The position numbers and the translations under genes are program-made. DNA of 64,000 bases, from positions 683,395 through 747,394 of the forward strand of contig CAVPOC010000003.1 in NCBI GenBank assembly GCA_963706955.1, given 5' to 3'. The notes beneath the pieces were generated by a model, which had not been told where the DNA came from, did not search any database, and worked only from the letters and a program-made list of their open reading frames with translations. Source of the stretch: an uncultured Verrucomicrobiae bacterium. Its GTDB lineage: Bacteria; Verrucomicrobiota; Verrucomicrobiia; Chthoniobacterales; Terrimicrobiaceae. This document shows positions 38,987 through 48,339 of the stretch, one piece after another. Every line of letters starts with the position of its first letter. The stretch's first letter is position 1.

Positions 38987-40414
38987 CTAATATCGATAGT
39001 AATCCGGCTTGTACGGACCTTCCAGGGGGACGCCAATGTAGGCAGCCTGCTTCGGCGTGAGGGTGGTTAGCTTCGCGCCGACCTTTCCCAGATGGAGGCG
39101 GGCCACTTCCTCATCGAGTTTCTTAGGGAGCACAAACACCGCCGGCTTGTAGACATCCCTGTTCTTCCAAAGGTCGAGCTGGGCAAGCGTTTGATTGGAG
39201 AAACTGTTGCTCATGACAAAGCTCGGATGGCCGGTGGCACAGCCGAGGTTAACGAGCCGACCCTCCGCGAGCAGAAAGATTTCGTGGCCATCCGGGAACG
39301 TATACTTATCCACCTGAGGTTTGATATTGGTTCGCTGGACGCCCGGGAAACCGTTGAGGTTGTCAACTTGGATTTCGTTATCGAAATGGCCAATATTACA
39401 CACGACGGCCTGATCCTTCATCTTGACGAGATGTTCGATCGTAATTACGTCCACATTGCCGGTCGTGGTGACATAGATGTCTCCTCGGCCAAGCGTCTCC
39501 TCGATGGTTGTGACTTCGTAGCCTTCCATGGAGGCCTGGAGCGCATTGATCGGATCGATCTCTGTGATGATCACGCGGGCCCCTTGCCCTCGGAGCGACT
39601 GAGCGCATCCTTTGCCAACATCGCCGTAACCGCAGACGACCGCGATCTTGCCGGAGATCATCACATCCATGGCCCTGTTGATCCCGTCCACCAGTGAATG
39701 CCGGCAGCCATAGAGATTATCGAATTTGGATTTGGTCACCGAGTCGTTAACGTTGAAGGCGGGAACGAGAAGCTTGCCGAGCTCCTGAAGCTTGTAGAGG
39801 CGATGAACGCCTGTCGTGGTCTCCTCGGAGACGCCGCGCCACTCCCTGACGATCTCGTGAAAGACGAACGGGTTCTCCGCATGAATCCTCTTCAAGAGAT
39901 CCTTGATGACTTCTTCCTCATGGCTTGCACTCGGGCTGTTGACCCAATCATCTCCCTCTTCGAGTTCATGTCCTTTGTGGAGAAGCAAGGTGACGTCGCC
40001 GCCATCATCGACGACCAACTGCGGACCCTTGCCTTCCGGATTCAGGACGGCCCGCCATGTGCAATCCCAGTACTCCTCGAGAGATTCGCCTTTCCACGCG
40101 AACACAGGCACGCCTTCCTTGGCAATGGCGGCGGCGGCATGATCCTGGGTTGAGAAAATGTTGCAGCTTGCCCAGCGCACCGTGGCACCGAGTTCCACGA
40201 GCGTCTCGATGAGGACTGCCGTCTGGATCGTCATGTGGAGCGACCCGGTAATCCGCACCCCCGCCAGCGGCTTCTCCGAGGCATACTTTTCGCGAATAGC
40301 CATCAGCCCTGGCATCTCCTTTTCGGCAATCGAAATTTCCTTGCGCCCCCACTCCGCGAGAGCAATGTCGCGGACTTTGAAGTCGGCTGTTGGCGGTAGA
40401 ATTGCAGTACTCAT
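38987..40414 (-). CDS. ahcY: Adenosylhomocysteinase
   Basis: [51 protein letters not shown]; start at ATG of MSTAILPP. Confidence 0.98.
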
Positions 40415-40830
40415 AATCTTAGTTGATCCACAGATTTCACAGATTCGCACAGATTGTTCTCTGTCCCGAAAACCATACGTTTATACTCGAGGCTGGCAGC
40501 TCCGAAGTTAATTAGAATTCCTCGCCGATGCTTGGTCGCTTTTAGTTGATTTAGGAGCTGAGCTTGGTTAGGCGAGACCAAAGCCGTGGTCGCCTTGATC
40601 TCGACAAGGACGTTTTCAAAGCAAACAAAGTCAGCCCGATAACCACACGAGAGGCGCATCCCCTTGTATTCGACTGGCAGTTCAACCTCTGCCCGGAAAG
40701 GAATTCGGCGCGCCGCAAATTCGATCGCTAAGGCTGCCTGATACACCGCCTCCAGAAAACCATCGCCTAACTCTCGATGCACCTCCATCGCTGCGCCGAT
40801 GATGTCATAGGTTTGCGGGTCATTCTCCAT
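40411..40830 (-). CDS. GxxExxY protein (PD-(D/E)XK-like nuclease fold)
   Basis: [22 protein letters not shown] (G-FL-E-AV-Y), RADFV...VEIKA, GILINFG. Confidence 0.92.
40421..40455 (+). repeat. Left inverted-repeat arm of GxxExxY cassette (3 x CACAGATT)
   Basis: AGTTGATC-CACAGATT-T-CACAGATT-CG-CACAGATT. Confidence 0.9.
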
Positions 40831-40833
40831 TCT

Positions 40834-40869
40834 AATCTGTGAAAATCTGTGCCAATCTGTGGACAAACT
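40834..40869 (-). repeat. Right inverted-repeat arm of GxxExxY cassette (3 x AATCTGTG)
   Basis: AATCTGTG-AA-AATCTGTG-CC-AATCTGTG-GACAAACT, an imperfect reverse complement of the left arm. Confidence 0.9.
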
Positions 40870-42042
40870 TTACATCGCCGCGTCGCGCAGGTCGTTGGCT
40901 CTGTCTGACCGCTCCCAAGTCAAGTCGGGATCGTCTTTGCCGAAGTGACCATAGTTGGTGCTCTTTAAGTAAATCGGACGCAAAAGATTTAGCTGCTCGA
41001 CGATTTCGGCGGGCTTGAAACTGAAGGTCTGCAGGATTGCGTTTTCGATACGCTCTTCGGGAACGCGATTTGTTCCGAACGTGCTGATACTGACGCTCAC
41101 GGGCTGGGGATGACCGATCGCATAGGCGAACTGCACTTCGCACTTCGCCGCCAGGCCTGCGGCGACCACATTTTTGGCCACATAGCGGCCCATGTAAGCG
41201 GCGCTTCGGTCGACTTTGGACGGATCCTTGCCCGAAAAGGCTCCGCCGCCATGGCGTCCCATCCCGCCGTAAGTATCGACGATAATCTTGCGGCCGGTCA
41301 GGCCACTATCGCCCTGCGGGCCACCAATGACAAAGCGTCCGGTCGGATTTACCAAATACTCGGTCTTGGAGTTTAGCAGCGACTTCGGGAGCACTTTCTT
41401 AATCACCTTCTCCACCACGAATTTCCTGAGTTCCGAATGGCTGACCTCCGCCGAGTGTTGGGTGGAGACGACGACATTCGAGATGGCGATCGGGTGGCCG
41501 TTTTCGTAGAGCACCGAGACTTGGCTTTTGGCATCCGGCCGCAACCAACCGACTTTGCCGCTTTTGCGCAGCCGGGTCAGTTCTCGGCCAAGCCGATGGG
41601 CAAACATGATCGGTGCCGGCATCAGCTCAGGGGTCTCATCACACGCATATCCAAACATCAACCCTTGATCGCCGGCACCCTGCTCGGCTGTCTTTTTTCC
41701 CTTCGCTCTTCTGGCATCTACCCCCTGGGCGATATCTGAACTCTGCGCCGTGATGTAGTTGCTCACAAAGACGTGATCAGCGTGAAAGACGTCGTCATCG
41801 TGCACATAGCCGATCTCGCGGATCGCCTGACGGATAATCGCATTGTAGTCAAACCGCGCCTCGGTGGTGATCTCACCTCCTACAACAACAATGTTGCTCT
41901 TCACGAAAGTCTCGCAGGCGACCCGACTCAGTTTATCCTGCGCCAGGCAGGCGTCCAAAATCGCGTCCGAAATCGTATCACAGACCTTGTCGGGGTGACC
42001 TTCACCCACCGATTCTGAAGAGAAAATATAGCGTCGAGGCAT
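40870..42042 (-). CDS. metK: S-adenosylmethionine synthetase
   Basis: [36 protein letters not shown]. Confidence 0.98.
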
Positions 42043-42047
42043 TTACT

Positions 42048-42073
42048 TATTAAAGTATTTGCATATTTTAATA
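42048..42073. promoter_or_regulatory. AT-rich palindrome (putative operator / overlapping divergent promoters)
   Basis: TATTAAAGTAT-TTGC-ATATTTTAATA: 10 of 11 arm positions are complementary; it fills most of the 37-bp metK/regulator spacer. Confidence 0.65.
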
Positions 42074-42079
42074 CGTCTG

Positions 42080-43000
42080 GTGGCCTCGATTGTCAACTCA
42101 CTGCGCGCGATCTCTGATCCAACTCGATTGCGGCTGCTCTTATTGCTTGTGGAGGAAGAACTAACGGTCGCGGAATTGCAGGAAATTCTTGGCATGGGCC
42201 AGTCACGGATTTCAGCAAGTCTCGCCTTGCTCAAGCGGGAGGCGATCGCAAGAAATCGTCGGGTTGGGAAGAACATCTTTTACGCGGTTCGTCCGGAGAT
42301 CGTCTCTCCGCTTCGACCGATTCTTGAAGCCGCCAAACTCGAATTGCCGGAGGCTGGGAGCGACAGCGCTGCCATGGCTCTGGCATTGCGCAAACGCAAA
42401 GACAAAGCCGCCGAATATTTTAACAAGTTAGCGGGCAAGTTTGGGCGCACCTACATTCCCGGGCGGTCCTGGCAGGCGTTGGCACATGCGCTGCTCAGGC
42501 TTCTTCCAGCCATGGTGATCGCGGATCTGGGTGCGGGCGAAGGCACCTTGTCGCAACTGCTTGCCCGGAGGGCGAAGAAGGTAATCGCCATCGACAACTC
42601 AGAAAAGATGGTTGAGTTCGGCTCGAACCTTGCGCGCGAACATGGTTGCAAAAATCTCGAGTATCGTCTCGGTGACATTGAAGATCCGCCGATCGAGCAC
42701 GGGAGTGTTGACCTGGCACTCTTCAGCCAGGCGCTCCATCATGCCTCCAGCCCGCAGAAAGCCGTGTCGGCCGCCCACGGCATTCTCCGCGATGGAGGCC
42801 GCGTCGTCGTCCTCGACCTGGCGAGTCATAGTCACGAGGAGGCCCGCGAATTGTACGCGCACGCTTGGCTCGGCTTTTCCGAGGTCGAGTTGCAGGAAAT
42901 TCTGGCGAAGGCAGGTTTTTCTGAGATCGAGGTCAGCGTCGTCTCCCGGGAAGCGCAGGCTCCTAACTTTCAAACGCTGCTAGCGGTTGCCACCAAGTGA
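42080..43000 (+). CDS. ArsR-family regulator fused to SAM-binding methyltransferase domain (SahR-like)
   Basis: SDPTRLRLL..L...ELTVAELQEILGMGQSRIS HTH; ADLGAGEG motif I; next to metK/ahcY. GTG start at 42080. Confidence 0.88.
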   Translation: MASIVNSLRAISDPTRLRLLLLLVEEELTVAELQEILGMGQSRISASLALLKREAIARNRRVGKNIFYAVRPEIVSPLRPILEAAKLELPEAGSDSAAMALALRKRKDKAAEYFNKLAGKFGRTYIPGRSWQALAHALLRLLPAMVIADLGAGEGTLSQLLARRAKKVIAIDNSEKMVEFGSNLAREHGCKNLEYRLGDIEDPPIEHGSVDLALFSQALHHASSPQKAVSAAHGILRDGGRVVVLDLASHSHEEARELYAHAWLGFSEVELQEILAKAGFSEIEVSVVSREAQAPNFQTLLAVATK

Positions 43001-46183: not shown

Positions 46184-46441
46184 TCCATCTGCTTCTTTCG
46201 AGCAAACCCACTTCCTGTCAAGAACGCATTTCCCCCCATCGAAACAGGGAGACGCCCGAATGTTAGCCTCGCTCTTCGTCTTCTTCCGAGCCGCTTAAAC
46301 CAGCTTAGAGAACTCAACGCAGGTGCGGCCCAAGGGCTAATTGGGTCGCTGGTCGCGCTAGCTTGATCTATGTCAAGGATTCTCTTGACGCGCGCGCTTC
46401 CACGATTGCGGACCGGCGGGGAACATGACAATAATCAGGCC

Positions 46442-48339
46442 ATGCCCGCTCCTACCAAAGCTCCCCAAGTCAAGGCCTCTCGAGCCATCAGCAAACCCAA
46501 GCCGTCGACCACCGGCGGGCCGAAATCCCGAAAGCCTCTCGCCAAGAACAAGAATCTGATCACGTGGGTTGAGAAGATGGCCAATCTCACGAAACCGGCC
46601 GCGATTCATTGGGTTGATGGTTCCGAGAGCGAGAACGAAGCGCTGTGCAATGAATTGGTAGCCGGCGGAACATTTACCAGGCTGAATGAAAAGCTTTGGC
46701 CGGGTTGTTTCTATGCGAAATCGGATCCGGGCGATGTGGCGCGCGTGGAGGAGCGGACCTTTATTTGTTCGCTCTCGAAAGACAACGCCGGCCCAACGAA
46801 TAACTGGATGGATCCTTTCGAGATGCGGCGCAAACTCAAAGGGTCTGTTCAGTGGCTGCATGCGGGGACGGACGATGTACGTGCTGCCATTTTCCATGGG
46901 TCCGATTGGTTCGCCGATGTCCCAAATCGGCGTCCAGCTCACCGACTCGGCCTACGCGGTGGTGAACATGCGCATCATGGCGCGCATCGGTCTGCCGGTC
47001 TTCCAGGAGATCGACAAGAACCTCCAGACGGGTCGTGCCTTGCATGCATTCCGTCGGTGCTCCGTTGAAGCCGGGCCAAAAGGATGTGCCCTGGCCATGC
47101 AATCCCGAGAAATATATTGTCCACTTTCCTGAGACGCGTGAGATCTGGAGCTACGGATCCGGCTACGGCGGCAATGCCTTGCTCGGGAAGAAATGCTTCG
47201 CGCTGCGAATCGCCTCGAACATTGCGCGGGATGAGGGGTGGATGGCCGAACACATGCTCATCCTCGGGGTGGAAGATCCAAAGGGCGAAAAGACCTATGT
47301 GGCTGCCGCCTTTCCGAGCGCCTGCGGCAAGACAAACTTCGCCATGCTCATCCCGCCGCCGCACTTTCAGAAAGCCGGTTGGAAGGTCTGGACTGTCGGC
47401 GACGATATCGCGTGGCTGAAACCCGATGCCAACGGTGGCATTCGCGCCATCAACCCGGAGACTGGCTTCTTCGGTGTCGCGCCCGGGACCTCCGCCAAGA
47501 CCAACCCTAATGCCATGGCTGCTCTCGCGAAAAACACCATCTTCACGAACGTTGGTCTCACTCCAGAGGGCGGCGTCTGGTGGGAAGGCATGACTGACGA
47601 GCCTCCCGCGGAGTGTACCGATTGGCAGGGCAAGCCGTGGACACCCAAAATCGCCAAGGAAACCGGCGCGAAGGCGGCTCATCCGAATGCCCGCTTCACA
47701 GCACCGGCCGCGCAATGCCCAACCATCGATCCCGCTTGGGAAGACCCTGCCGGCGTCCCGATCAAAGCGATCATCTTTGGGGGACGCCGCGCCAGCACCC
47801 TCCCGCTCGTTTGTCAGTCCTTCAACTGGAGCGGAGGAGTTTACATGGGAGCGACGATGGGCTCGGAGATGACCGCGGCGGCGGCCGGCGGCTTGGGACA
47901 AGTGCGACGCGATCCGATGGCCATGCTCCCCTTCTGCGGCTATCACATGGGCGACTACTTCCGCCATTGGATCAAAATGCAGCGGTCGCTCAGCGAGACC
48001 CCTCGGGTCTTTCTCGTCAATTGGTTCCGCAAAGACGCCGACGGAAAGTTTCTCTGGCCGGGATTCGGAGAGAATATGCGGGTGTTGAAGTGGGTCGTCG
48101 ATCGCGTTCGCGGTCGCGCGTTGGGCAAGGAAACACCGCTCGGCTGGCAGCCAGATTACGACGACATGGATTGGGAAGGTCTGAAGTTCTCGCGCGACGA
48201 TTTTGAGGAGATTCAGCGCGTCGATGACGAGGCATGGCGAAGCGAGGTCATCGGCCATGAAGAGCTCTTCCTGAAGCTCCATGACCACCTGCCCAAGGAA
48301 CTCATCTACGAGCGAGAGCTACTGATCTGCCGGTTGTAG
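46442..48339 (+). CDS. pckG: Phosphoenolpyruvate carboxykinase (GTP); two apparent frameshifts near 46843 and 47025
   Basis: [58 protein letters not shown] spread over three consecutive frames. Confidence 0.93.

Follow-up and report, generated by a model that had tools for sequence, protein, structure and literature searches.

Results

A small gene between mirrored word arrays

Why should a small gene of the GxxExxY family, enclosed by mirrored arrays of a short word, lie inside an operon between metK and ahcY? The question is raised by a 64,000-nucleotide stretch of DNA from an uncultured Verrucomicrobiae bacterium (assembly GCA_963706955.1, contig CAVPOC010000003.1, positions 683,395 to 747,394; hereafter referred to as the window). 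The answer that we favour, with moderate confidence and from sequence comparison, is that the insert is a DNA-level, likely self-propagating cassette resembling REPIN-RAYT systems, which would re-enter its site by short-homology recombination; this account fits better than that of an intervening sequence (IVS) of the messenger RNA (mRNA). Its mobility is supported by comparative evidence, the apparent outcomes of recombination being visible in the genomes.

On the minus strand, metK (40870..42042; recognised by profile TIGR01034 and its open reading frame, ORF) forms the 5' border and ends with the TAA stop at 40870-72. The left arm (40834..40869, minus strand) contains three CACAGATT words with periods of 10 and 10 nt (40854-61, 40844-51 and 40834-41 on the mRNA strand), its tip being the CC at 40862-61, with a short outer extension. 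The gene itself (40411..40830, minus strand) encodes 139 amino acids, and its final ~15 codons run through the right arm (40421..40455, plus strand), in which the three inverse words (40448-55, 40438-45 and 40429-36) follow periods of 9 and 10 nt counted from the tip at 40428-29, again with an outer extension. The TGA of the cassette ORF overlaps the ATG (40414) of ahcY (38987..40414, minus strand; TIGR00936), the host gene on the 3' side. Tip to tip, the cassette measures 435 bp (40428-40862), and the outer 16 nt of the arms pair with one mismatch and one G.U. Every coordinate and letter that the initial annotation had given for the metK stop, the six words, the ORF, the TGA/ATG overlap and the pairing of the outer 16 nt proved correct. 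The six octamers in the window all lie in the arms (1.78 expected; six or more in 0 of 100 shuffles), and the cassette region is predicted to fold as a single long stem of 27-35 bp (z = -3.3).

Occupancy of the metK-ahcY junction

The junction was aligned across the genomes of the genus and 80 further genomes of the order, 75 of the latter with metK adjacent, and its state was scored by eye. (In the identifiers below, G denotes a genome, C a contig, L a locus and P a protein.) The 105 junctions comprised 19 with a GxxExxY gene or its remnant, 19 with a gene for a four-helix-bundle protein, 11 with other repeats and 56 scored as none, including L323, in which a two-arm remnant is nevertheless present. 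At least 31 changes of state are required on the host tree, and the two cassettes were never found together at this junction. The four-helix-bundle gene (TIGR02436) lies between different inverted arms, as in G010, G008 and G023; we take this family to be kin to Avd.

Within the genus, intact GxxExxY alleles are present in the genome of the window (G000) and in G007, a frameshifted allele in G004 and an internally deleted one in G001; two-arm remnants persist in G015, G005, G003, G013 and G012, and a single arm in G011, and the junctions of G002 and G006 look empty. Empty junctions of 3-10 nt, from which the arm words are absent, were found in at least five genomes, which bears out the earlier view of a mobile-looking, non-polar cassette. 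Non-polarity has a simpler basis in the layout: the ORF ends on the ahcY ATG, or no more than ~12 nt from it, in seven of the ten intact copies at this site, as the translational coupling proposed in the initial annotation would have it. G010 has frameshifts in metK and rpoA, so that a single-base break in assemblies of this kind may be an error; neither the large internal deletions nor the mosaic described below depends on such breaks. The metK-ahcY junction of other genomes (L305, L308, L309, L275, L302 and L304) is also occupied by hairpins or arms with no gene, of five or more further word types.

The 11 GxxExxY proteins from the metK site form one clade with one escapee (SH-aLRT 94; approximately unbiased test, P = 0.59), and the copies from sdhA-sdhB and from npdG-cofE each fall in a clade of their own. 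Likewise, the 16 four-helix-bundle proteins from the metK site are grouped in a single clade with respect to 22 from other sites in the genus. Nonsynonymous divergence (dN) of the cassette was 0.235 in one congeneric pair and 0.051 in another at equal metK distance, which points to replacement. The ORF is under purifying selection, with ratios of nonsynonymous to synonymous substitution of 0.19, 0.06 and 0.06 (the three of eight pairs with unsaturated synonymous sites).

A narrow swap and host tails

Genomes G001 and G010 are 94-96% identical around rpoA and 94-98% identical in nine of 11 metK/ahcY windows, yet carry different cassettes at this junction (GxxExxY-type versus four-helix-bundle). 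At informative sites, G010 sides with G001 by 67:5 in metK and 65:5 in ahcY, whereas over the end of the spacer and the first ahcY codons it sides with the four-helix-bundle carrier G008 by 16:2. The exchanged block therefore consists of the cassette and about 10 ahcY codons; the corresponding stretch of the window (3' spacer and first ~10 ahcY codons, 40385..40420, minus strand) is delimited from G001, G010 and G008, not from the window copy.

Tandem re-insertions carry tails of host sequence, of 14-41 nt where cases from 43 of 188 arm pairs were inspected by eye and of 17-90 nt in a wider set (16 of 359 arm pairs). In G010, the second copy at purQ-purL apparently brings with it the purQ end of another lineage. 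A fixed cutting distance outside the tip, suggested by five left tails of 34-41 nt, was dropped in view of the wider range of 17-90 nt.

Arms accompany the gene across phyla

Among the 80 closest homologues, drawn from many phyla, an arm was found within ~170 nt of the gene in 79 and an inward-facing pair in 56, against a background of 21 in 1051 windows. The word columns of these arms are invariant and the spacer columns freely mismatched, which is the pattern expected of binding sites; at some positions, complementarity between spacers barely exceeds chance. In 36 of the 56 paired elements, a same-strand stop lies upstream, no more than 30 nt from the left tip (no more than 10 nt in 25). The junctions occupied, named from a scan of 51 neighbours, include gltB-gltD, sdhA-sdhB, metK-ahcY, npdG-cofE, yebC-ruvC, speA-dhys and thiolase-FadB; purQ-purL is another. 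Arm layouts are varied: extra and outward arms occur, solo arms and same-direction layouts are common, and tip-to-tip spacers differ in length.

Word type tracks the protein tree, with 21 changes as opposed to a mean of 75 after shuffling (160 distinct proteins from the 167 of 189 loci passing the filters; quick tree based on 117 columns). A single genus contains at least seven word types, so the host is not what sets the word. The inverted arms co-vary with the protein clade. The TAA at both borders, from which the initial annotation had derived a plausible empty junction, found no support as a target duplication or excision footprint: in most congeners metK closes with TAG and the right border lacks a TAA to match, and in the 56 elements no excess of direct repeats of 2-5 nt was detected at offsets 0-6, beyond the self-complementary AT. 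A TAA or TA target duplication was rejected.

Several other arrangements were observed. In one clade, with CGCAAAG words (metagenome loci L146-L214), 30 of 48 copies have arms that point away from the gene, and a partner arm is sometimes found ~830 nt upstream, with another gene enclosed. Two GxxExxY cassettes (L083 and L086) lie directly 3' of what appears by eye to be the 3' end of a tRNA. On G002:C85 (L119, L134 and L406), two inverted GxxExxY copies with shared flanks and ~8 kb between them form a composite-like structure.

Gene-less arms in the host genome and the order

The arms are not confined to the metK-ahcY locus, a feature that could not be seen from the window alone. The genome of the window contains 94 exact octamers and dozens of degenerate arms, and a moderately strict pattern recovers 71 arms of two word types; of these, 13 begin within 30 nt of a preceding same-strand stop, compared with 47 among 2071 random positions. 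Many form inverted pairs 57-184 bp apart, and two retain recognisable gene ends. A second GxxExxY cassette, with CACAGAG arms, lies at purQ-purL (C13:45482-46080; L001) and is followed by a 146-bp deletion copy; at the same junction, relatives carry duplications bearing purQ or purL ends. The genome also has a four-helix-bundle cassette with heptamer arms (7-base period) at the sdhA-sdhB junction (C8:515812-516129; L224) and a second, frameshifted one with sdhA/sdhB-like flanks (C8:1074808-1075126; L246). In Gallionellaceae, one sdhA-sdhB junction is occupied by GxxExxY instead.

Across 151 genomes of the order, at least 15 strict arm matches (median 26, maximum 262) were counted in 24 of the 29 genomes in which a homologue scored an E value below 1e-30 but in only five of the 122 others, a difference whose significance is overstated because the genomes are related. 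The cases nevertheless span nine families; a reversed control pattern gave zero matches. Both the homologue flanks and these counts tie the arm arrays to the GxxExxY family, as opposed to repeats free of it. Reverse transcriptase was not enriched (10 of 29 arm-rich genomes and 46 of 151 overall, by hand count) and, with no association with arm-rich genomes, was ruled out as the mover.

The predicted nuclease

In profile searches, the window ORF scored 138.7 bits against TIGR04256 (GxxExxY; cut-off 35) and 129.1 against PF13366 (PDDEXK_3; cut-off 22), and the flanking genes passed the metK and ahcY profiles, confirming the family and neighbours first assigned. At least 90% of 104 sequences share residues E27, D67, E77, K79 and Q91. 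The structure model of the protein (pLDDT 92.7) places it, by its predicted fold and its acidic/lysine triad (D67, E77 and K79), among the PD-(D/E)XK nucleases. The best structural match was Cas4 SSO0001 (Foldseek E = 4e-4; Z 8.2, root-mean-square deviation (rmsd) 4.5, 100 residues aligned), followed by the nuclease domain of the type IIG enzyme BpuSI (Z 8.1, rmsd 2.7, 95 aligned), lambda-type exonucleases, Hjc (6.3), XisH (5.9) and tRNA splicing endonucleases (5.5). For this model, matches of the Cas4/RecB/lambda-exonuclease type indicate the fold only. Most members of the family have QxxxY, a motif of RecB and Cas4 nucleases; the metK/gltB lineage has QxxxE and the window copy QxxxQ. In the account that we favour, the protein is predicted to be a nuclease that likely binds its own words in DNA and introduces nicks or breaks close by.

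The family is large (15,250 clusters at 50% identity matched GxxExxY/PF13366 at E values up to 0.001), and locus L033 encodes a protein 94% identical to that of the window. In the accessible text of PMC3424549, in which the QxxxY motif does not appear, GxxExxY/PF13366 is a family of unknown function with multiple transfers; a GxxExxY domain has also been recorded near a CRISPR reverse transcriptase (bioRxiv 2021.01.26.428298, in the part available). The profile searches matched the ORF to GxxExxY/PDDEXK_3 only and to no transposase family, a sequence search of the PDB returned only T7 endonuclease I (E = 2), the ESM Atlas search yielded no usable match and no Rfam family came near its cut-off. 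Residues for word specificity were inseparable from phylogeny, and one CAGAG-armed protein of the T clade (L081) displayed no clear convergence. Five proteins of 250-295 aa (P0011, P0022, P0045, P0063 and P0072) contain two GxxExxY-like stretches and are possible fused dimers.

Neighbouring genes

Divergent from metK, a gene at 42059-43000 (plus strand) encodes a methyltransferase-like domain fused to an ArsR-type helix-turn-helix and is presumably a SahR-like regulator of the methyl cycle. At ~46370-47130 (plus strand), a GTP-dependent phosphoenolpyruvate carboxykinase is split between two frames, with the break near 46800, reflecting either a frameshift or an assembly error.

Discussion

A probable self-propagating DNA cassette

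The cassette that we propose would work as follows. The GxxExxY gene would be expressed from the host operon, its stop re-supplying ribosomes to ahcY, and the protein would recognise its own word when the DNA is double-stranded. A copy with ragged host tails of 15-50 nt may be released or primed by breaks close to the arm tips and would re-enter the same junction, or rarely a new one, by short homology and host recombination. Acting in trans, the protein could also mobilise gene-less arms, which would pile up in the manner of REPINs. In favour of this account are the link between arm word and protein clade, the excess of gene-less arms where the matching gene is present, the position after stop codons, the decay and replacement of alleles at metK-ahcY, the narrow swap, the host tails of re-insertions, the purifying selection on the ORF and the fold and catalytic residues of the protein.

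Several observations weigh against this account. Empty junctions have no words, and the choice of a new or empty site is left unexplained. Four-helix-bundle cassettes, whose protein has no nuclease annotation, share this layout and fidelity to sites, and the mover may therefore be something other than the nuclease; their likeness allows a shared mover or the passive shuffling of a retained slot. The narrow swap could be an old polymorphism with flanks homogenised by routine recombination, and, tail lengths not being fixed, ordinary slippage or recombination between repeats can yield duplications of the kind described. The protein tree of the metK site broadly fits the host families, so much of the inheritance is vertical, and the relatedness of the genomes limits the arm-load comparison, as stated above. 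Structural similarity tops out at a Z of about 8, and the lineage of the window has E or Q at the usual Y95 of the family.

A broader proposal can be made, tentatively and at less than even confidence: that two unrelated small proteins, the Cas4-like GxxExxY nuclease and the IVS four-helix-bundle protein, are carried between mirrored arrays of their own words in a previously undescribed class of cassettes competing for slots. The GxxExxY proteins would then be sequence-specific nucleases of ~120 residues with an evolvable 7-base code, driving a recombineering-like homing by short homology and seeding hundreds of gene-less repeats per genome.

A possible accessory gene retained by the host

The gene could instead be an accessory one kept by the host, encoding a nuclease for defence, toxicity or repair, with arms serving as autoregulatory looping operators and slot alleles shuffled by ordinary homologous recombination. 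The purifying selection on the ORF and its long residence at fixed junctions are in keeping with a host function. The gene was absent from all 50,697 phage records searched and present in eight of 72,556 plasmid records, every one of them non-mobilisable, and RAYT genes are likewise described as domesticated (PMC8049555, accessible text). However, such a function would explain neither the gene-less arm matches, numbering up to 262, where the matching gene is present, nor the frequent loss of internal sequence with both arms retained, nor the occupation of many unrelated junctions; PADLOC returned no meaningful match. We consider this explanation unlikely.

A possible intervening sequence in the mRNA

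The initial annotation had also envisaged that the arms pair in the transcript and loop out the insert. They would then juxtapose the metK stop and the ahcY start, or be cleaved, whether by RNase III or by the cassette protein, the unit being kept or spread through RNA. The predicted stem of 27-35 bp is close in length to that of the Coxiella 23S IVS (28 bp; PMC4990558, in the part available), begins just past the stop and finishes just ahead of the ATG, and inverted complementarity extends ~6-8 nt outside the words in the 56 elements. Moreover, the alternating cassette at metK-ahcY carries TIGR02436, a family that occurs in 23S IVSs (bioRxiv 2024.02.27.582315, accessible text).

Mismatches in the arms nonetheless provide no RNA signature. 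On the mRNA strand, the GxxExxY arms have 167 G.U and 181 A.C mismatches in the full set (9 and 23 in a first subset of 26 loci), and these even counts favour neither strand; the four-helix-bundle arms, with 23 G.U, 37 A.C and 122 other mismatches, lean in the direction opposite to that expected for RNA. Spacers hardly more complementary than chance at some positions, frequent solo and same-direction arms and the lack of reverse transcriptase enrichment also count against an IVS. In two RNA runs from two studies, contigs cover the ORF, one of them running from metK across the left arm into the start of the ORF, and no joint skipping the insert was present in these contigs, which are of low depth and leave the right arm and 40347-40423 uncovered. 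Two skipping joints in DNA runs (40455>40834 and 40453>40833) have sides of less than 30 nt, probably stem from gene-less copies elsewhere and were not used. Processing or spread through mRNA appears improbable, marginally more so than retention by the host.

Finally, a conventional insertion sequence with miniature inverted-repeat derivatives, which would move by cut-and-paste from fixed ends and duplicate TA/TAA at its target, is very improbable and largely refuted: the ends are inverted, deletion derivatives retaining both ends exist and PD-(D/E)XK proteins include TnsA and XisH (PMC3424549, accessible text), but no such duplication was found, tip-to-tip spacers and tails are variable instead of fixed, the proteins cluster by junction and are not scattered as near-identical copies, and no transposase family was matched.

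Significance

The self-propagating DNA cassette that we favour would assign to the GxxExxY family, for which no function is listed, a specific and testable substrate, namely a clade-specific word array. If true, it would account for the intergenic repeats that abound in Verrucomicrobiota and other phyla, and would connect these repeats with the four-helix-bundle "IVS protein" and with the way in which intervening sequences of rRNA spread. Should the proteins cut by a short evolvable code and integrate through short homology, few such systems would be smaller. What this locus contributes is a single junction traced through an order, together with the mapping of host tails, a dated-looking swap and tests that set DNA against RNA. 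No description of such cassettes was found in the literature searched, most subscription papers lying outside its reach; the observation is real and not ordinary, and the class is apparently undescribed.

Comparison with known systems

In the accessible text of PMC8049555, REPIN-RAYT systems consist of one gene, or a few, on the chromosome with its own repeats on either side; inverted doublets without a gene are numerous between genes, and the repeats are commoner in gene-bearing genomes. Local tandem amplification, mostly vertical inheritance and rarity on plasmids are further traits, and the cassette resembles these systems in all of them. The enzyme of the cassette is, however, a PD-(D/E)XK protein of 139 aa, where RAYT is a tyrosine transposase; the arms are built as direct arrays of non-palindromic words of 7-8 bases whereas the REP sequence is self-palindromic, and the gene lies within the inverted pair at an operon junction, where it alternates with an unrelated four-helix-bundle cassette.

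The ORF-bearing 23S rRNA IVS of Coxiella (S23p) is similar in being an insert of ~430 nt that has a single small ORF and ends in an inverted repeat of ~28 bp, and in its patchy distribution and ORF decay (PMC4990558, in the part available); the IVS protein family is, in addition, that of the alternative cassette at metK-ahcY. Unlike this IVS, the cassette lies in a protein-coding operon and not in an rRNA gene, its stem is made up of invariant words and mismatched spacers with no G.U signature, and no sign of excision was seen in the RNA contigs (two runs, low depth, right arm uncovered). Homing endonuclease elements, including those with the PD-(D/E)XK enzyme I-Ssp6803I, share with it lineages tied to one site, alleles that are intact, broken, without the ORF or empty, co-conversion of neighbouring host sequence and a nuclease fold (PMC3424549, accessible text), but the cassette has neither intron nor intein, the sequence conserved in it is that of the arms and does not differ between sites, and its empty alleles lack the words. 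Cas4, RecB-family and lambda exonucleases provide the best structural matches (SSO0001 and BpuSI), although these are middling and the window protein is a stand-alone minimal core of ~120 residues with no CRISPR context. Overall, the cassette works most like REPIN-RAYT, is IVS-like in its size and alternative cargo and homing-like in its life cycle, and departs from each of these systems in a defining respect.

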